Assembly: GCA_021324235.1 (NCBI GenBank)
Contig: JAJPJM010000153.1
Coordinates: forward strand, 471 to 64,470
Direction of reading: 5' to 3'
Origin: Verrucomicrobiota bacterium
Lineage (GTDB): Bacteria > Verrucomicrobiota > Verrucomicrobiia > Limisphaerales > UBA11358
DNA length: 64,000 nt
The position numbers were made by a program, and so were the translations under genes. A model generated the notes under the pieces. The model saw nothing but the letters and a program-made list of their open reading frames with translations. It was not told where the DNA came from and made no database searches. This document shows positions 36,968 to 45,078 of this stretch, one piece after another (positions within the stretch are counted from its first letter, which is position 1; each line of letters opens with the position of its first letter).

Positions 36968-39871
36968 ATGAACAAATCGTCGATGCTGGTTATTTTGGGC
37001 GCGCTGCTGGTGGCAGACAGTCTGGCCCCGTCCGCGCGGGCGCAGAGCAACGTTGTTTATGCCGCTGAGTACAATCAATCGACCAATCATTTCGGCACCA
37101 TCAATTTGTTGAACGGCAACTTCACCAGGATCGCCTCGATCGGTTCGGTGAAGATCAACGACATCGCGTACTGCCCCACGAACGGCGTGTTGTATGGCAT
37201 ATCGAACTCCACCGCCCTGGTCACGTTCAACAAGACCAACGGCGCCATTACCAAAGTCGCCAACTTGAGTGTCAATAGCATTGAGTCCCTGGCCTTCCGG
37301 CCCAGCGACGGAAAACTGTTCGGAGCCACGCAGAGCAAGTTGTACACGATCAATCCCGTCACCGGAACGGCGACTTCGGTCGGAAGTTATGGCAGCCCCA
37401 ACAATCTCAACGATGCCGGACAAAACATCCGTTTTGCGCAGGATGGCAATCTCTACGTGAGTAATACGAGTACCAACACCGACATTTACCGGCTCAACAC
37501 CACGAATGGAAGTGCGACCTGGGTGGGCGAAGCCGTCGGCTATCCCTATCTGATGCTAATGAATGCCAGTTCAAACATGTACGGGGTCTTCGTCAATTTG
37601 GGAAACGGAAGCAACTCCTACCCCGAACTGGCGAGTTTCAATTTGAGCAGCTTCGTCACCGGCGGGACCAATGCCAATGGCAGCACTCACCAGATCACTC
37701 TTAATCTGGTGGGCGCCGGCACCAACTTTCCCGCCAACATCGTCTTTTCCGGCAATGTCCCTCAACCCGTTACCAATCTTACCATCGCGGTGAGCGCCAC
37801 CGGACCGACGAGTCAGACGGTTTGTCCGGGTGACGGCGTCGTATTCAGCACGGTGGCTTCCGGCACCGGACCTTACAGCTATGCCTGGTTGAAGAGTGGT
37901 TCGGTTCTCAGCGGCCAGACCAACAGCAGTCTGACTCTGCTGAATGTGGGTGCCGGGGACGCGGCGACTTATAGCGTCATCGTGAGCGGAGCGATGGGCA
38001 TGGTGACCAACAGCGCCACCTTGACGGTGAACGCGCCGGTGACCGTGACCACGGCGCCCCTTAACCAGACCAGCGTGGCCGGTGGCAGCGCGAGCTTTAG
38101 CGTGACGGCGAGCGGAACCGGTTTGAGCTATCAATGGTTGTTTAACGGCCAGGTCATCGGGACCAGCACCAACCTGATCTTGAACAATCTGCTTACCAGC
38201 CAGGCGGGCGTTTACACGGTGATTGTCAGCGGCACTTGCGGGAGCGTAACCAACAACGCCACCTTGACGGTGAACAAAGCCGCGGCCTCGATTACATTGG
38301 GCAGCCTCAATCCGACCTACAACGGTTCGGCCGAAGCGGCCACGGCGACTACAACTCCGAACGGGCTGGCAGTGACCTTTACTTACAACGGTTCAGCCAC
38401 CGTTCCGACGAGCGCCGGTACTTATACCGTGGTGGGAACGATCAATGACCCCAATTATCAAGGCAGCGCAACGGGTACGATGGTGATTGCCCGGGCTTCA
38501 GGCGGTATCGTGCTGGGCAGCTTGAACCCGACCTATAACGGTTCAGCCGAAGCGGCCACGGCGACGACCACTCCGGGCGGGCTGGCGGTAACCTTTACTT
38601 ACAACGGTTCAACCACCGTTCCGACGAGCGCCGGCAGTTACACGGTGGTGGGAACGATCAATGACCCCAATTATCAAGGCAGCGCAAGTGGTACGATGGT
38701 GATTGCCCAGGCTTCCAGCACGATCGTACTGGGCAACTTGAACCCGACCTACAACGGTTCGGCTGAAGCGGCAACAGCGATGACCACTCCGGGCGGGCTG
38801 GCGGTAACCTTTACTTACAACGGTTCAACCACCGTTCCGACGAGCGCCGGCAGTTACACGGTGGTGGGAATGATCAATGACCCCAATTATCAAGGCAGTG
38901 CCACGGGTACGATGGTGATCGCCCAAGCTTCAGGTGGCATCGTGTTGGGCAACCTGAACTCGACCTATAACGGTTCAGCCGAAGCGGCCACGGCGACGAC
39001 CACTCCGGGCGGGCTGGCGGTGACCTTTACTTACAACGGTTCAACCACCGTTCCGACGAGTGCCGGCAGCTACACGGTGGTGGGAATGATCAATGACCCC
39101 AATTATCAAGGCAGCGCAACGGGCACGCTGGTGATTGCCCAGGCTCCCCTGACTATCACGGCCGCGGCCAACACCAAGACTTACGACGGTACCACCAATG
39201 CCGCAGCGGTTCCAACGGTCACTGGTTTACAAGGTTTCGATACCGTGACGGGTCTGGCTGAAACTTATGACACCAGGAATGTCGGTACCGGTAAGACGCT
39301 CACCGTCATCACCTATACCGTCAATGACGGCAATGCCGGTGCCAACTACACCGTTAACACCGTTTCCAGTTCCGCAGGTGAAATCGACCCGGCGACGCTG
39401 ACGGTGACGGCTAATAACGAGAGCAAGATGTGCGGACAACCCAATCCGGCACTGACAGCCAGTTATTCGGGTTTTATTACTGGAGAGGATACCAATGTGC
39501 TGACGTCCCCGGCGGTTTTGAGCACGACGGCGACGATTAACAGCACGCCCGGTGCGTATCCAATCACTGCCAGTGGCGTGGCCGCTGCCAACTACACGGT
39601 CAATTATGGCAACGGAATGCTGACCGTGACCGTGGCCCCGGTAGTACAATTGAGCTGCGCCAGCGTCAATGTCAGTGGGACCAAACAATTCGTCGTGAGC
39701 TGGTCGTCCGCCACCAATCAAACCTATCAACTGGAGTGGACCACCAATCTCACCACCGCTCCCGTTTGGACCCCAGCGGGCAGTTCCCTGCCCGGGACCG
39801 GCGGCATAATGTCCGTGACCAACAGCATGACCGCCGCACCGCGATGCTTCTTCCGGTTGGAGTTGCAATAA
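36968..39871 (+). CDS. Large secreted surface protein: N-terminal propeller-like region, two Ig-like modules, four MBG-like tandem repeats, C-terminal sorting-type domain
   Basis: 967 aa with a signal peptide. Two Ig-like repeats (..YSVIVSG..TNSATLTVN). A 72-aa unit (LNPTYNGSAEAATATTTPGGLAVTFTYNGSTTVPTSAGSYTVVG.INDPNYQGSA) occurs four times. Confidence 0.7.
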   Translation: MNKSSMLVILGALLVADSLAPSARAQSNVVYAAEYNQSTNHFGTINLLNGNFTRIASIGSVKINDIAYCPTNGVLYGISNSTALVTFNKTNGAITKVANLSVNSIESLAFRPSDGKLFGATQSKLYTINPVTGTATSVGSYGSPNNLNDAGQNIRFAQDGNLYVSNTSTNTDIYRLNTTNGSATWVGEAVGYPYLMLMNASSNMYGVFVNLGNGSNSYPELASFNLSSFVTGGTNANGSTHQITLNLVGAGTNFPANIVFSGNVPQPVTNLTIAVSATGPTSQTVCPGDGVVFSTVASGTGPYSYAWLKSGSVLSGQTNSSLTLLNVGAGDAATYSVIVSGAMGMVTNSATLTVNAPVTVTTAPLNQTSVAGGSASFSVTASGTGLSYQWLFNGQVIGTSTNLILNNLLTSQAGVYTVIVSGTCGSVTNNATLTVNKAAASITLGSLNPTYNGSAEAATATTTPNGLAVTFTYNGSATVPTSAGTYTVVGTINDPNYQGSATGTMVIARASGGIVLGSLNPTYNGSAEAATATTTPGGLAVTFTYNGSTTVPTSAGSYTVVGTINDPNYQGSASGTMVIAQASSTIVLGNLNPTYNGSAEAATAMTTPGGLAVTFTYNGSTTVPTSAGSYTVVGMINDPNYQGSATGTMVIAQASGGIVLGNLNSTYNGSAEAATATTTPGGLAVTFTYNGSTTVPTSAGSYTVVGMINDPNYQGSATGTLVIAQAPLTITAAANTKTYDGTTNAAAVPTVTGLQGFDTVTGLAETYDTRNVGTGKTLTVITYTVNDGNAGANYTVNTVSSSAGEIDPATLTVTANNESKMCGQPNPALTASYSGFITGEDTNVLTSPAVLSTTATINSTPGAYPITASGVAAANYTVNYGNGMLTVTVAPVVQLSCASVNVSGTKQFVVSWSSATNQTYQLEWTTNLTTAPVWTPAGSSLPGTGGIMSVTNSMTAAPRCFFRLELQ
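38291..39154 (+). repeat. Four tandem 216-bp (72-codon) near-identical coding repeats
   Basis: Units at 38291, 38507, 38723 and 38939. Only a few substitutions per unit at the protein level. Confidence 0.9.
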
Positions 39872-40929: not shown

Positions 40930-41988
40930 TTATTGAGTCAAGTCCTGCCCTGACAGGACCTGTGCCTGCAACTGCTGGACGATGAGCCGCGCGCGCGCCA
41001 CGGCGGTGTCCTGCGTTTCCCCTAGAAACGATTTCAACTCGACGCGCACGGCCGCCACCGGATCGCCATTGCGGTCGGTCAAGGCCATGACCACCGCCAC
41101 CGTGCCCTGGCCGCGCCCGAAAGAGACCGTGCCGGCGGCGATGGCGCCCTTTTCAGCATCGGTGCCGGGCTGGCCGATTTCCTTTTCGTTGTTGCTGGCG
41201 ATGATTTGCGGTTTGCCCTGGTCATCCAGCGTATAAACCCGGAGTTCCAGAATGCGTGGATATTTCTGCATCAGGCCCTGCACCAGGGTTTGCGCCATCG
41301 GTACGCGCGGGGTGTAGTTGATCGTGGTGTCGCCAAAATAACTGACGGCATCCGATTTTGTCCAAAAGCCGATGTGGCCGGAGGTGAAGGTATTGTCGAC
41401 CACCGGCGGCATTACCAGGTGATCATCCAGCAGGCAGATGATTTGATTGCCCTGGCATTGGATGCCCAGCGTATGCCAGACATTGGAGGCAATGTCCATG
41501 TCCGGTCCCAGGAGATTGCCGCGCAGCCCGTTCACCACCTTATAGAAGCGAATGTTATGCCCCAGCGCGCTGGCGCGGATCACGTAAAAATTCGACGCGT
41601 TCTGATAGCGGAACACGATGCCCGCCATTTGTTCCGCCACGCCGCTGACGATTTTAAACTGCGTCGTCAGTTTGAAATCCTTGAAGGTCTCCCGGTCATA
41701 GACCAGCATCGGAAACCGTTCATCGGTGGGATCCTCGCTGAGTTGGGCGAGCACGGCGTGCCGGTTCATGGTCGGGGTCCGGCCCGCCTGAGGCGTCAAG
41801 GGGGCAAACGCCGACGGAACTTCATCCACGATGATTTTCCAATCGCCCGGCCGGCCGCCGCCGGCCAGCGTATTGTGAAAACCAGCCGGCGTTTCATTCG
41901 TTGGGTAATTGCCAAAATTAATGTTTATTTCCGCGCCGTAAACGGGCAGGGTCGACGCGAGCGCGAGGCCGAAAAACAAATTACGCAT
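40930..41988 (-). CDS. Secreted protein with a DUF1080/concanavalin-like lectin-fold domain plus a C-terminal sensor-like domain
   Basis: ORF 40930..42045(-); start moved to MRNLFFGLALASTLPVYGAE. FKDFKLTTQFKIVSG..AGIVFRYQNASNFYVIRA..GHIGFWTKSD is typical of DUF1080. Confidence 0.6.
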   Translation of the reverse strand: MRNLFFGLALASTLPVYGAEININFGNYPTNETPAGFHNTLAGGGRPGDWKIIVDEVPSAFAPLTPQAGRTPTMNRHAVLAQLSEDPTDERFPMLVYDRETFKDFKLTTQFKIVSGVAEQMAGIVFRYQNASNFYVIRASALGHNIRFYKVVNGLRGNLLGPDMDIASNVWHTLGIQCQGNQIICLLDDHLVMPPVVDNTFTSGHIGFWTKSDAVSYFGDTTINYTPRVPMAQTLVQGLMQKYPRILELRVYTLDDQGKPQIIASNNEKEIGQPGTDAEKGAIAAGTVSFGRGQGTVAVVMALTDRNGDPVAAVRVELKSFLGETQDTAVARARLIVQQLQAQVLSGQDLTQ

Positions 41989-42060
41989 TGACGGCAGCGT
42001 AACAAAAACCGGCCGGACGACAAGTTTTTGCGCCCGGCCGGCCAATGATGGTGGTGATAA

Positions 42061-43950
42061 TTACGCCTTCCAGATCATGTCGGCCACGGTGCGGCCTGCC
42101 GGAATGAACGGGATGACGTGCGTGCTGTAAGGCGTGACCACGTCGAGAATGTAAGGCTCCCTGGCGTCGAGCATCCGCTGGATGGCGGCGCGCAAATCCT
42201 TTTTGTACATCACGCGCTCGCATTTGACCCCGAATGAATTGCAGACGCGGACGTAGTCGGGATAAATCTCGGGACGATGTTCCGGATCACCGAGATAGGT
42301 ATGGCCGCGGTTGCCGGCGTAGAAGTTGTCCTCCCACTGCACCACCATGCCGAGGTGCTGATTGTTCAGAATGATGGCCTTGGCGTTGATTTTTTCGACA
42401 TGCGCGGTGGCCAGCTCCTGGATGTTCATCAGGAACGAGCCGTCGCCGTCGATGTCGATCACTTCCTTGTCCGGGTGGGCGATCTTGATGCCGAGCGCCG
42501 CCGGAAAACCAAAACCCATTGAACCCAGCCCGCCGCTGGTGATGAACTGGCGCGGATGTTCGTATTTGAACCATTGACCGGCCCACATCTGGTGCTGGCC
42601 CACGCCGGTGGTGATGATGGCGTCGCCCTTGGTCAATTCGTACAGCGTCTCGACCACCATTTGCTGAAGGATGACCTGGTTTTCGTGTCCTTGCATGTGG
42701 TCTTTCATGTGGTCGCTGCCGGCAATTTCACTCGTGATGCGATAGGCGAACGGCCCCTTCTTCTTCCACTCGTCAATCTGCGCGAGCCAAGCGGTGTGCT
42801 TTTTGTTGAGCGGGCGCTTGGCCAGCATGGCATTGAGCCGTGTCAGCGCGTCCTTGATGTCGCCCACCACGGGGAGGTGTGCCTTCCGGTTTTTGTTTAA
42901 CTCGGATGCGTCGATGTCCAGATGGACAATCGTGCCTTGTTTGCAGAATTCCTCGAACTTGCCGGTCACCCGGTCGTCAAACCGCACGCCGAAGGCGAGC
43001 AGCAAATCCGCACCGTCCTTGATCTTCACCATGGGGTCGTTGAAAGACTTGCGGAGTTCATATTCGCCATTGACGGCCCAGTTGGCAAAGGCCGCCCCGT
43101 GCATGCCCAGCCAGCGCAACGAAAGTGGATGCGTTTCGGGAAAGCCGCCGATGCCCATGAGCGTCGTGGTCACCGGAATGTTCGTGGCCTCGGCAAACTT
43201 CTTCAATTCCGCCGCCGCATCGCCGCTGATGATGCCGCCGCCGCAGTAAATCACCGGGCGTTCGGCCTTTTCAATCAGGCCCACGATTTCGTTCAACGCG
43301 AGGTCGTCGGCACGCAGGTCGGGTTGAGTGTAGCCGCGCAGACCTTTCTTGATCTGCGCCAGGGTCGGCCAGACCGGCTGGGTTTTGGCCTGTTGGATGT
43401 TTTTGGGCACGTCAATCACCACCGGGCCGGGCCGGCCGGTTTGCGCGATGTAAAACGCCTCCTTCACGATGCGCGGAATGTCGTTCACGTCCGTGATGAG
43501 GTAGCTGTGCTTCACAATGGGCAGTGTCACGCCGATGATGTCGGTTTCCTGGAAGGCGCCGCGGCCGATCATGTTCTGGTTGACCTGGCCGGTGATGGCG
43601 ATGAGCGGACAGGAATCCAGGTAGGCATCGGCGACGGCGGTGACGAGGTTGGTTGCCCCCGGTCCGCTGGTGCCCATGCACACGCCGGCCTTGCCGGTGG
43701 CGCGGCCATAACCTTCCGCCGCGAAACTGCCGCCCTGCTCGTGGCGCGGCAGGATGGTGCGGATTTTGGACTTCGTGAGCGACTGGTGGATTTCCATGCT
43801 CGCGCCGCCGGGATAGGCAAAAATGACTTCGACGCCTTCGCGTTCCAGGGCTTCGACGAGGATGTCGCGCCCGAACATGGCGGCGCCGACCTCGGCGCGG
43901 GCGGGGGAGGCGGGTTTTTTACTGGCAACGGTTTCAGTTGACTTGCTCAT
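42061..43950 (-). CDS. ilvB: Acetolactate synthase, large (catalytic) subunit, biosynthetic type
   Basis: 629 aa. ThDP-enzyme motifs are present (GGASMEIHQSL, GTSGPGATNLVT, GLGSMGFGFPAALG, IDGDGSFLMN). No ilvN-like small subunit gene follows. Confidence 0.9.
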   Translation of the reverse strand: MSKSTETVASKKPASPARAEVGAAMFGRDILVEALEREGVEVIFAYPGGASMEIHQSLTKSKIRTILPRHEQGGSFAAEGYGRATGKAGVCMGTSGPGATNLVTAVADAYLDSCPLIAITGQVNQNMIGRGAFQETDIIGVTLPIVKHSYLITDVNDIPRIVKEAFYIAQTGRPGPVVIDVPKNIQQAKTQPVWPTLAQIKKGLRGYTQPDLRADDLALNEIVGLIEKAERPVIYCGGGIISGDAAAELKKFAEATNIPVTTTLMGIGGFPETHPLSLRWLGMHGAAFANWAVNGEYELRKSFNDPMVKIKDGADLLLAFGVRFDDRVTGKFEEFCKQGTIVHLDIDASELNKNRKAHLPVVGDIKDALTRLNAMLAKRPLNKKHTAWLAQIDEWKKKGPFAYRITSEIAGSDHMKDHMQGHENQVILQQMVVETLYELTKGDAIITTGVGQHQMWAGQWFKYEHPRQFITSGGLGSMGFGFPAALGIKIAHPDKEVIDIDGDGSFLMNIQELATAHVEKINAKAIILNNQHLGMVVQWEDNFYAGNRGHTYLGDPEHRPEIYPDYVRVCNSFGVKCERVMYKKDLRAAIQRMLDAREPYILDVVTPYSTHVIPFIPAGRTVADMIWKA

Positions 43951-43959
43951 AGGTTTTGC

Positions 43960-44036
43960 GATTAAGAGTAAGATTACGATTAAGATTCAAGGTGTGCTAT
44001 GGCAGCATCCTCTTAATCTTGTTCTTAATCTTAATC
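43960..44036. promoter_or_regulatory. AT-rich imperfect inverted repeat built from GATTAA(GA) hexamer/octamer units, immediately upstream of ilvB
   Basis: Left arm GATTAAGAgTAAGAttacGATTAAGA (43960-) pairs with right arm TCTTAATCttgtTCTTAaTCTTAATC (-44036) as 8+5+8 bp. The 3' arm (mRNA sense) ends about 10 nt before the ilvB ATG. Confidence 0.45.
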
Positions 44037-44038
44037 AT
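43997..44038 (-). CDS. Possible 13-codon mini-ORF MIKIKNKIKRMLP within the AT-rich repeat
   Basis: ATG ATT AAG ATT AAG AAC AAG ATT AAG AGG ATG CTG CCA TAG on the reverse strand. May simply be a by-product of the repeat. Confidence 0.2.
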   Translation of the reverse strand: MIKIKNKIKRMLP

Positions 44039-44067
44039 GTTTGGGTTGTGGCCGGCGGCGCGGGTCA

Positions 44068-44102
44068 AACAAAAAACCCACGACTGTTGCCAGCCGTGGG
44101 TT
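44068..44102 (-). terminator. Intrinsic terminator = candidate attenuator of the ilvB leader
   Basis: Reverse strand: aaCCCACGGC-uggcaaca-GUCGUGGGuuuuuug. The stem is 8 bp with one G-U pair, followed by U6. Lies 22 nt after the leader-peptide stop and 118 nt before the ilvB ATG. Confidence 0.7.
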
Positions 44103-44123
44103 CTTGTTAAAGTTTGGTTATGT

Positions 44124-44195
44124 TCAACAAGCGCCAACGGCGTCGCTAACTACGACGACGACCAGACTGACAACATGTAGAACGTTTTTCAACAT
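44124..44195 (-). CDS. Val/Leu-rich leader peptide (23 aa) MLKNVLHVVSLVVVVVSDAVGAC
   Basis: Reverse-strand ATG 44193-44195, TGA 44124-44126. 9 Val and 3 Leu in 23 codons, including five consecutive Val codons (GTC GTC GTC GTA GTT). Too short for the ORF track. Confidence 0.65.
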   Translation of the reverse strand: MLKNVLHVVSLVVVVVSDAVGAC

Positions 44196-44204
44196 TACGC
44201 GTTC

Positions 44205-44232
44205 AGTTTACCGCAGTTACCGGCCGGGTCAA
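44205..44232 (-). promoter_or_regulatory. Candidate sigma-70-type promoter of the ilvB leader
   Basis: Reverse strand TTGACC-N16-TAAACT. The -10 element ends 9 nt before the leader ATG, implying a very short or absent 5' UTR. Confidence 0.4.
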
Positions 44233-44320
44233 GCCCTGTTTTTGGCCAATTTTAGCCCCTTTTTTGCCCTGACCCACGGAAACAAGGGAAACCGCGCAGG
44301 GACAGGGGATTTACGCCAAC

Positions 44321-44347
44321 GAAAAAGCCGCGGAACAATTCCGCGGC
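44321..44347 (-). terminator. Intrinsic terminator of the ribosomal-protein operon (after rplI)
   Basis: Reverse strand GCCGCGGAA-uug-UUCCGCGGC followed by uuuuu. Perfect 9-bp stem, 30 nt after the rplI stop. Confidence 0.75.
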
Positions 44348-44376
44348 GGGTTGGAACCAATGGCGCCGTTAAGGGC

Positions 44377-45078
44377 CTATTCCGCCTTTTCCTTTTTTTC
44401 GGACTTGGGCGTTTTGGCGGTTTTTTCCGCTTTAGGGGCGCGACTTTTCTTCGCCTCCGGGGCTTCGGCTTTTTCGGCCTTTTCCGGTTTTGACGCCTTT
44501 TCACCTTTAACGTCCCGCTTGGCAAAACTGCGTTTCTCCGTCCTGGCTTTTTTACCTTCCTCGGTCTTGGCCTCGGCAGGCGCCGCCGCGACGGTTGCTT
44601 CCGACGCCGGCGTGGCCGCCGGGGTGGTGCTTTCCACGCGAACTTTCAGCGTGCCTTTGACTTCGGCATGCAAATGCAGTTCGACCTCATACTCGCCCAG
44701 TGTGCGAACCGGGTGTTCCAGGTGGATTTTCTTTTTGTCGAGCGAGATGTCGAACTGATGCTTCAATTCGTCGGCAATCATGCCGGCGGTCACCGACCCG
44801 AACATCTTGCCGTCCTCGCCCGCCTTCACCTTGATGACGCAGATGAGTTTTGACAGCGCCTTGGAAAGTTCGGTCATGGTGTTGAACTCGTGCGCCTCGC
44901 GTTCGGCCCGGCGCTGGCGCAGGGCTTCCAGGTGGCGCCGGTTGGCCTGCGTGAGCGGGATGGCCAGCCGTTGCGGAAAAAGAAAATTGCGCGCGTAACC
45001 GGCGGCAACCTTTACCTGATCGGACTCGGCCCCCAGGCCGACAATGTTATGGGTGAGAATGACTTCAGTCTTTGGCAT
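44377..45078 (-). CDS. rplI: 50S ribosomal protein L9 with a roughly 85-aa Lys/Ala/Glu/Pro-rich C-terminal extension
   Basis: MPKTEVILTHNIVGLGAESDQVKVAAGYARNFLFPQRLA N-terminus. Tail: ..EAKTEEGKKARTEKRSFAKRDVKGEKASKPEKAEKAEAPEAKK... Confidence 0.9.
   Translation of the reverse strand: MPKTEVILTHNIVGLGAESDQVKVAAGYARNFLFPQRLAIPLTQANRRHLEALRQRRAEREAHEFNTMTELSKALSKLICVIKVKAGEDGKMFGSVTAGMIADELKHQFDISLDKKKIHLEHPVRTLGEYEVELHLHAEVKGTLKVRVESTTPAATPASEATVAAAPAEAKTEEGKKARTEKRSFAKRDVKGEKASKPEKAEKAEAPEAKKSRAPKAEKTAKTPKSEKKEKAE

Follow-up and report, generated by a model that had tools for sequence, protein, structure and literature searches.

We found that ilvB, the gene for the large subunit of acetolactate synthase, is preceded in bacteria of the Limisphaerales (Verrucomicrobiota subdivision 3) by a conserved leader with the anatomy of a transcription attenuator. 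The leader is described here in a 64,000-nucleotide stretch of contig JAJPJM010000153.1 (hereafter, the window), and all coordinates refer to this whole 64-kb stretch. A short open reading frame (ORF) rich in valine codons is followed by an intrinsic terminator, and the end of the ORF can pair with a segment that overlaps the terminator stem. We propose that the leader is a ribosome-mediated (leader-peptide) transcription attenuator that would tune ilvB to the supply of charged tRNA-Val, a reading to which sequence comparison and RNA folding lead us to assign a probability of about 85%. Charged tRNA-Leu and tRNA-Ile are probably sensed as well.

Anatomy of the ilvB leader

The leader unit lies on the reverse strand at 44232-44067, upstream of the gene that it is predicted to regulate. 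Its parts are as follows.

44227-44232, reverse strand: -35 box, TTGACC
44205-44210, reverse strand: -10 box, TAAACT (family pattern TAnnnT), 16 nt from the -35 box
44124-44195, reverse strand: leader ORF of 23 codons plus TGA (ATG at 44195, TGA at 44126-44124), peptide MLKNVLHVVSLVVVVVSDAVGAC
44148-44162, reverse strand: run of five putative regulatory Val codons, GUC GUC GUC GUA GUU (codons 12-16), with codon-like variation
44122-44183, reverse strand: 1:2 hairpin (anti-antiterminator and candidate pause), from the minimum-free-energy fold of the full leader
44123-44141, reverse strand: antiterminator 5' arm (region 2), GCCGUUGG-CG-CUUGUUGAA, from constrained folds
44093-44111, reverse strand: antiterminator 3' arm (region 3), UUUAACAAG-AA-CCCACGGC, from constrained folds and pair counts
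44067-44102, reverse strand: intrinsic terminator, AACCCACGGCUG-GCAA-CAGUCGUGGGUU followed by U6-G-U3, -21.4 kcal/mol
42061-43950, reverse strand: ilvB, acetolactate synthase large subunit, the predicted regulated gene (TIGR00118, 672.5 bits)

A preliminary description of this locus reported a TTGACC-N16-TAAACT promoter-like element and a 23-codon ORF with nine Val and three Leu codons, five of the Val codons being consecutive. Both are present. The promoter-like element occupies 44232-44205 on the reverse strand, and a reading of that strand together with the ORF list gave MLKNVLHVVSLVVVVVSDAVGAC, with the reported composition. The Val codons outside the run are at positions 5, 8, 9 and 20. 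In the 1:2 hairpin, the 5' half of the ORF with its Val codons (44183-44155) pairs with the 3' half (44146-44122). Region 2 spans codons 19-23, the stop codon and one more base, and the final 8 nt of region 3 (CCCACGGC) double as the core of the terminator 5' arm.

The terminator is the strong hairpin with a U6 tail that had been described, with 12 pairs and a 4-nt loop, although the distances around it required small corrections. CCCACGGC begins 23 nt past the leader stop codon, or 21 nt when two A-U pairs are included, rather than 22 nt. ilvB does follow the terminator, but its ATG is 120 nt from the end of the six-U run (44076-44071) and 116 nt from the end of the full U6-G-U3 tail (44067), rather than 118 nt. 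The leader stop codon lies 47 nt from the U-run and 173 nt from the ilvB ATG.

The leader folds with a z-score of -3.77, and none of 200 shuffled sequences was equally stable. This score and the recurrence of the element upstream of ilvB in other genomes place it beyond chance. A scan of the window for mini-ORFs that contain amino-acid runs and precede a terminator ranked the leader as the strongest attenuator-like unit. The same scan found no second mini-ORF/terminator attenuator in the window, the remaining matches being weak (4 of 7 identical residues). A simple consensus terminator scan of 43500-44800 missed the leader terminator, which was found by RNAfold and by the separate attenuator scan; negatives from the consensus scan alone should not be trusted. 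The window contains no tRNA genes and hence holds no information on tRNA-Val.

The leader is conserved and linked to ilvB

We collected relatives by scanning for IlvB and keeping one genome per species, which gave 80 loci whose IlvB proteins are 84-95% identical to that of the window. Their labels are nearly all Verrucomicrobia subdivision 3, Limisphaerales or Pedosphaera; a few metagenome-assembled genomes (MAGs) are obviously mislabelled. The window and the 76 loci with sufficient upstream DNA were aligned to give 77 leaders (alignment A1). A Val-run mini-ORF lies upstream of ilvB in 76 of these 77, so the combination first described in a single genome is not absent from its close relatives. 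The terminator hairpin is found 41-48 nt past the stop codon in all 77 leaders. Its U-run is intact in all except L006, which keeps the hairpin and has an interrupted run (TTTCTT).

A metagenome scan with the conserved core recovered the leader in at least 120 contigs. Among the matches listed, ilvB lies downstream in all 104 that have enough DNA, and the Val-run ORF is present in 112 of 116. Two contigs, L178 and L193, were considered as leaders without ilvB and rejected, since one ends within ilvB and the ilvB of the other is frameshifted. The 120 matches listed from an IlvB search of 5.8 billion proteins all show at least 87% identity. The genome and metagenome matches show that the leader is abundant in soil, peat and freshwater (lake) Verrucomicrobia.

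The genes around the leader are far less constant. rplI lies upstream in only 20 of 72 loci, and a common downstream gene, which encodes a protein with a 3-keto-disaccharide hydrolase domain, is present in only 21 of 72. Because the leader stays with ilvB although the flanking genes vary, we conclude that the unit belongs to ilvB and has its own promoter. ilvB itself stands alone in this clade: the downstream genes are heterogeneous, and neither ilvN nor ilvC adjoins ilvB in any locus examined. In the window, the next gene (40930-42045) codes for a signal-peptide-like protein with a 3-keto-disaccharide hydrolase domain.

Nine MAGs (L007, L017, L031, L050, L067, L068, L069, L075 and L079) carry a typical Limisphaerales ilvB (85-91% identity) under the titles Bifidobacteriaceae, Bifidobacterium, Akkermansia muciniphila, Pseudomonadales or Sulfotelmatobacter. 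The leader is also present wherever these MAGs include the upstream DNA, that is, in all but L031 and L050. The odd titles are probably taxonomic mislabels or the result of mis-binned contigs.

Alternative RNA helices are predicted to depend on ribosome position

We folded the window leader under constraints representing different ribosome positions and repeated the analysis on 76 family leaders. Without a ribosome, the window leader formed the 1:2 helix, a small hairpin designated P2 (CUUGUUGAA/UUUAACAAG) and the terminator. With the ribosomal A-site on Val codons 12-14, the nascent RNA formed the antiterminator GCCGU.GG..CUUGUUGAA / UUUAACAAG..CC.ACGGC at -19.9 to -23.1 kcal/mol, which captures 7 of the 8 nt of the terminator 5'-arm core. 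A ribosome placed at the stop codon left the terminator as the only structure. The family behaved alike: a stalled ribosome gave the antiterminator in 72 of 76 leaders, the terminator formed in 76/76 both without a ribosome and with a ribosome at the stop codon, and the 1:2 helix was present in 71 of 76 full-length folds. Thus, in silico, the choice between two mutually exclusive structures, which had been put forward for this leader, depends on ribosome position in the window and across the family.

The antiterminator had been proposed as an 8-nt pairing between the end of the mini-ORF and the terminator 5' arm. That pairing exists, but the structure is larger, because the 9-bp P2 helix (CUUGUUGAA/UUUAACAAG) is joined to a 7-bp extension. 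This composition accounts for the near-invariance of UUUAACAAGAACCCACGGC. P2 is compatible with both states, and competition with the terminator is confined to the 7-bp extension. In every leader, the stop codon is located within region 2 or P2.

Each helix is supported by pairing across the 77 aligned sequences. For the terminator, 98.6% of alignment cells are paired, compared with 26-54% in slid registers. The antiterminator reaches 93.7% (25-58% in slid registers) with 22 double-changed cells. The 1:2 helix, which bears out the suggestion that the Val-codon run can pair with the following segment of the ORF, reaches 83.8% (30-55% in slid registers) and shows double-sided changes at 10 pairs. 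Compensatory states were counted by clade on a neighbour-joining tree of ilvB. P2 pair 183/202 changes from U-A (44 sequences) to C-G (17 sequences) in 10 separate clades, and terminator pair 213/233 changes from A-U (61 sequences) to G-C (15 sequences) in 5 clades. These states are therefore not single inherited events. Column 213, an A or G within CCCACGGC, covaries with its partners in both the terminator and the antiterminator (U-A, U-G or C-G). A long-range pair seen in the ribosome-free nascent fold of the window, GUUGUCAGUC/GGCUGGCAAC, was rejected as window-specific, since the family consensus GUCAUUCUG breaks the pairing.

Taken with the position of the Val codons, these structures suggest the following sequence of events. 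Transcription would begin a few nucleotides 5' of the leader ATG, at the TTGACC/TAAACT promoter, and the near-leaderless RNA would be translated. When Val-tRNA is ample, the ribosome is expected to reach the UGA and cover region 2 (GCCGUUGG..CUUGUUGAA), so that the terminator and its U-tract form and the polymerase halts before ilvB. When Val-tRNA is scarce, the ribosome would stall early in the Val codons (codons 8-9 and 12-14) and break up the helix that joins the Val codons to region 2. The freed region 2 would then pair with the emerging UUUAACAAG..CCCACGGC, which would hold the terminator 5' arm and allow the polymerase to continue into ilvB. In the absence of any leader translation, the ORF halves should pair with each other (1:2) and the terminator should form, a predicted 'super-attenuation'. 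Translation of the leader ORF, kinetic competition between the helices and a physiological response to Val supply are the steps of this model that we infer from sequence and folding.

Several observations weigh against this model. Even with a stalled ribosome, the antiterminator state is less favourable than the terminator state by about 10-13 kcal/mol. The terminator thus dominates thermodynamically, and the switch would have to be kinetic. The terminator of the trp leader is also more stable than its antiterminator, and there, too, the choice is kinetic. Ribosome-free equilibrium folds of the nascent RNA leave the terminator 5' arm free in only 15 of 76 leaders, which means that the 1:2 helix alone provides no thermodynamic exclusion of the antiterminator; exclusion would have to be kinetic here as well. 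Stalling as late as codons 15-16, the last Val codons of the run, would mask part of region 2, which makes the earlier codons of the run the probable sensors. The covariation is recurrent but comes from few columns, since most paired positions do not vary and the sequences are related to one another. Finally, a similar-looking ilvB leader from Streptomyces coelicolor was unaffected by mutations of its candidate regulatory codons (discussed in PMC1262725).

A signature of selection on valine codons

Some of these points fit a different arrangement, in which the terminator/antiterminator switch is set by a protein, an uncharged tRNA, a small molecule or general coupling (translation rate, ppGpp), and the Val ORF is incidental or serves for coupling only. 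The S. coelicolor precedent and the thermodynamic dominance of the terminator agree with such a switch, as does the finding that the best-conserved nucleotides belong to the RNA helices and not to the peptide. The manner in which the ORF is conserved argues against it. The leader frame is open for at least 19 codons in 76/76 leaders, compared with 1/76 and 41/76 for the other two frames. Conservation extends to the start codon (ATG in 72 leaders, GTG in 3, TTG in 1), to the frame itself and to the placement of the stop codon, which lies over region 2. The peptides are 21-27 amino acids long, and their indels in alignment A1 are multiples of three. Val makes up 30% of the residues, with 5-9 Val per peptide in 76/76.

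Within the hydrophobic (Val) run, codon positions 1, 2 and 3 have entropies of 0.87, 0.47 and 1.90 bits. The first two positions are constrained and the third is nearly free, a pattern that marks selection for Val codons as such and not for one fixed sequence. The run is kept in this codon-like form in all 76 leaders. Further evidence against a switch that works without ribosome stalling comes from Rfam, in which no T-box or riboswitch model matches the leader, and from the geometry of the leader, which equals that of E. coli ivbL (see below). We therefore regard this explanation as unlikely and favour attenuation by a stalled ribosome.

The choice of Val codons is also unusual. Leader Val codons are GUC (223, 41%), GUU (159, 29%), GUA (145, 26%) and GUG (21, 4%). 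Those of the adjacent ilvB genes are GUG (1797, 59%), GUC (1035, 34%), GUU (197, 6%) and GUA (31, 1%). Usage in the leaders is thus roughly the inverse of that in ilvB, with GUA and GUU enriched in the leaders and rare in the gene. The relation between rare codons and the starvation sensitivity of attenuators has been discussed (PMC1183508). The skew toward GUA and GUU may raise sensitivity to starvation, or else be a by-product of pairing constraints.

We also considered that the mini-ORF codes for a functional small hydrophobic peptide, acting at the membrane or as a partner of IlvB, with its own terminator, and that ilvB is transcribed from a separate promoter. The peptide is conserved, including a C-terminal DAVGAC motif, and ilvN is missing next to ilvB, both of which fit this reading. 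However, the DAVGAC codons form both alternative helices and are conserved at synonymous sites: their third positions (C112, T121 and T124) are invariant or nearly so, which points to constraint on region 2 at the RNA level. The N-terminal half of the peptide varies freely, and a length of 21-27 amino acids with a Val run of variable length is typical of leader peptides. A weak Rfam likeness to ohsC, a small RNA known as the repressor of a small hydrophobic ORF, would also speak for a functional peptide, but at 22.6 bits (gathering score 50) it is far under threshold, and it falls chiefly on the stem of the terminator. The spacer from U-tract to ilvB ATG is only 40-52 nt long in most relatives; no promoter-like element was seen in it, the spacers of the relatives not having been promoter-scanned. 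A functional peptide is thus a very improbable explanation for the ORF.

Promoter and translation start

The TTGACC-16-TAAACT element was recovered by a promoter scan as one of three such sites in 1.3 kb, for which shuffled sequences give 0.4. TTGAC is invariant in 77/77 aligned leaders, and a TAnnnT hexamer follows 16-18 nt past the -35 box in 75 of 76. The -10 hexamer ends 6-12 nt (mode 9) ahead of the leader start codon. If transcription is assumed to start about 7 nt past the -10 box, the leader 5' untranslated region (UTR) would be about 0-5 nt long. The leader ORF is thus probably translated from leaderless or nearly leaderless RNA, the transcription start itself being predicted from the promoter boxes. 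Leader peptides in Corynebacterium are also translated from leaderless transcripts.

No Shine-Dalgarno-like motif was found upstream of the leader ORFs (0/76), and only 1 of 62 ilvB starts is preceded by one. These counts suggest that translation initiation in the lineage relies little on Shine-Dalgarno pairing. An A-rich stretch of the CCACAACCAAAAGAAA type is found upstream of the ilvB ATG.

An upstream ORF (uORF) could also act on translation, through re-initiation or unmasking of the ilvB start, and not on termination. Leader genes near structural genes can boost translation by re-initiation (PMC4833913), and the scarcity of Shine-Dalgarno motifs at ilvB starts would suit such a role. However, the distance between the uORF stop and the ilvB ATG is no less than 82 nt (173 nt in the window), compared with a re-initiation peak at 10-16 nt (PMC4833913), and a canonical terminator with a U-tract, conserved with compensatory changes in all but one aligned leader (L006), lies in between, which makes a translational role scarcely credible.

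Comparison with known attenuators

We compared the verrucomicrobial leader to characterized systems in other bacteria. The closest in design is E. coli ivbL (b3672, NC_000913.3), the Val/Leu-responsive leader of ilvBN, which codes for a 32-residue peptide, MTTSMLNAKLLPTAPSAAVVVVRVVVVVGNAP, with nine Val in runs. Its U-run lies about 52 nt past the stop codon and 53 nt before ilvB. The verrucomicrobial leader precedes a gene for the same enzyme, has nine Val codons in the window, places 47 nt between stop codon and U-run and, in most relatives, 40-52 nt between U-run and ilvB, and is predicted to follow the same three-helix logic. In contrast, the two leaders share no sequence homology, and the verrucomicrobial ORF is shorter (21-27 compared with 32 amino acids). 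Its -10 box ends about 9 nt from the ATG, too close for a conventional 5' UTR or a Shine-Dalgarno sequence to fit. Its Val codons are mostly GUC, GUU and GUA, whereas ivbL uses GUG and GUC, and the regulated unit is ilvB alone rather than ilvBN. The preliminary description had likened the locus to the enterobacterial ilv leaders, and this comparison held: apart from sequestration of region 2 by the 1:2 helix, which would have to be kinetic, every feature of a leader-peptide attenuator that sequence can test is present and conserved.

The E. coli trpL leader, the paradigm for 1:2, 2:3 and 3:4 pairing, shares the four-segment logic proposed for this leader, with regulatory codons in segment 1 and a stop codon that lets the terminating ribosome mask segment 2. 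It differs in the amino acid sensed. In the verrucomicrobial leader, the lower part of the antiterminator (CUUGUUGAA/UUUAACAAG) fits both states.

Leaders of actinobacterial ilvB genes, including the three-hairpin attenuator of Corynebacterium ilvBNC and its ilvB-II motif and those of Mycobacterium and Streptomyces, likewise combine a uORF rich in codons for branched-chain amino acids (BCAAs) with a terminator upstream of ilvB (PMC1262725, PMC11857589, PMC10272879). They belong to another phylum, differ in sequence, use mixed Ile, Val and Leu codons and control an ilvBNC operon. The ilvB-OMG and Leptospira ilvB motifs from the Breaker laboratory are conserved RNAs upstream of ilvB that were later re-read as attenuators with BCAA-codon uORFs, and the Leptospira motif contains at least three consecutive Val codons (PMC10272879). 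No Rfam match to the ilvB-OMG, ilvB or ilvB-II motifs appeared in the window leader (E <= 10) or in eight relatives (E <= 1), the inclusion of these motifs in Rfam 15 being unconfirmed, and we set the verrucomicrobial family apart from them provisionally.

Database searches support the suggestion that such leaders are uncharacterized in the Planctomycetes-Verrucomicrobia-Chlamydiae (PVC) group. The leader peptides matched no Pfam or NCBIfam family at E <= 10, including the IvbL, IlvL and LeuL families. No Rfam model, the His, Leu, Thr and Trp leader RNAs included, reached its threshold in the window leader (searched at E <= 10), in eight relatives (E <= 1) or in the whole window. The best match in the leader was His_leader, at 21.5 bits compared with a gathering score of 49, mainly over the terminator. 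No T-box match was found in 43500-44800 (E <= 10) or in the eight relatives (E <= 1).

Control of ilvB by leader peptides has been documented in Proteobacteria, Actinobacteria and Firmicutes and proposed for the ilvB-OMG and Leptospira ilvB motifs (PMC1262725, PMC11857589, PMC5794164, PMC10272879). Our literature search, which stopped short of the broadest survey (Lopatovskaya et al. 2010, PubMed 20198868), found no such attenuator for Verrucomicrobia or Planctomycetes. Papers citing that survey provide no taxon list for Verrucomicrobia. The one Akkermansia paper that turned up concerns ErmB.

We lean toward regarding the leader as the first ribosome-mediated attenuator family for Verrucomicrobiota and the PVC group, an ivbL look-alike that evolved independently, is virtually leaderless, is biased toward the rare codons GUA and GUU and serves a stand-alone ilvB. 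The mechanism itself is not new. The novelty lies in the lineage, the probable leaderless start, the rare-codon bias and an RNA family that has not been catalogued.

Genomic context and spacer insertions

Three further features lie next to the leader unit.

43960-44036, reverse strand: GATTAAG-type tandem repeats forming a hairpin of about 77 nt (-31.5 kcal/mol, z = -4.28), accessory and outside the core attenuator
44327-44347, reverse strand: rplI terminator, from the terminator scan
44377-45078, reverse strand: rplI, upstream neighbour of the leader; ssb and pth also lie upstream

The spacer between terminator and ilvB is about 80 nt longer in the window than in most relatives, the roughly 50 relatives without an insertion having 40-52 nt. 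About 17 loci carry an insertion at the same spot, in each case an imperfect hairpin of about 77-100 nt. Two unrelated repeat types are found, and their distribution is patchy. The GATTAAG type is present in the window, L001, L002, L008, L024, L026, L030, L039, L046, L058 and L066, and the GGATGATTGG type in L005, L013, L035, L043, L052 and L077. The insertion is preceded by AAACATG, which in the alignment matches the ilvB ATG of loci without an insertion, and at its 3' end lies a similar sequence, AAAAC(C)TATG. In sequence, these flanks resemble a target-site duplication. The repeat motif was not found elsewhere in the window. The insertion could be a mobile element similar to miniature inverted-repeat transposable elements (MITEs) or repetitive extragenic palindromic (REP) sequences, or it could be a hairpin that controls translation.

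The spacer of the window also contains an ORF, MIKIKNKIKRMLP, which we considered as a second, Ile-sensing leader. This candidate was rejected, as it lies within the insertion that most relatives lack and the other insertion type encodes unrelated sequence.

Implications and other features of the window

The leader represents an abundant, unannotated cis-regulatory family with no entry in Rfam, Pfam or NCBIfam, found in 76 reference genomes and at least 120 metagenome contigs of a little-studied phylum. A covariance model for its annotation could be built from alignment A1 as a seed. The recurrence of ivbL geometry without sequence homology bears on how constrained the design of attenuators is.

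The proposed mechanism requires a ribosome close behind RNA polymerase, so the leader provides indirect genomic evidence for coupled transcription and translation in Limisphaerales and, probably, for leaderless initiation. If the mechanism is correct, it would imply tight transcription-translation coupling in a PVC lineage. The PVC group was once proposed to have a compartmentalized cell plan. The leader is also a predicted regulatory input to BCAA synthesis in these environmental bacteria and a potential Val-responsive genetic part.

Two other proteins encoded in the window have unusual architectures. Ribosomal protein L9, the product of rplI, is 233 amino acids long, and the L9 profile covers residues 5-149 only; the remaining ~85 amino acids form a charged C-terminal tail rich in Lys, Ala, Glu and Pro. 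On the forward strand, 36968-39871 encodes a 967-residue protein with four MBG_3 repeats together with MBG_2, YDG and Ig-like domains, an adhesin-like or surface architecture that is unrelated to the leader.

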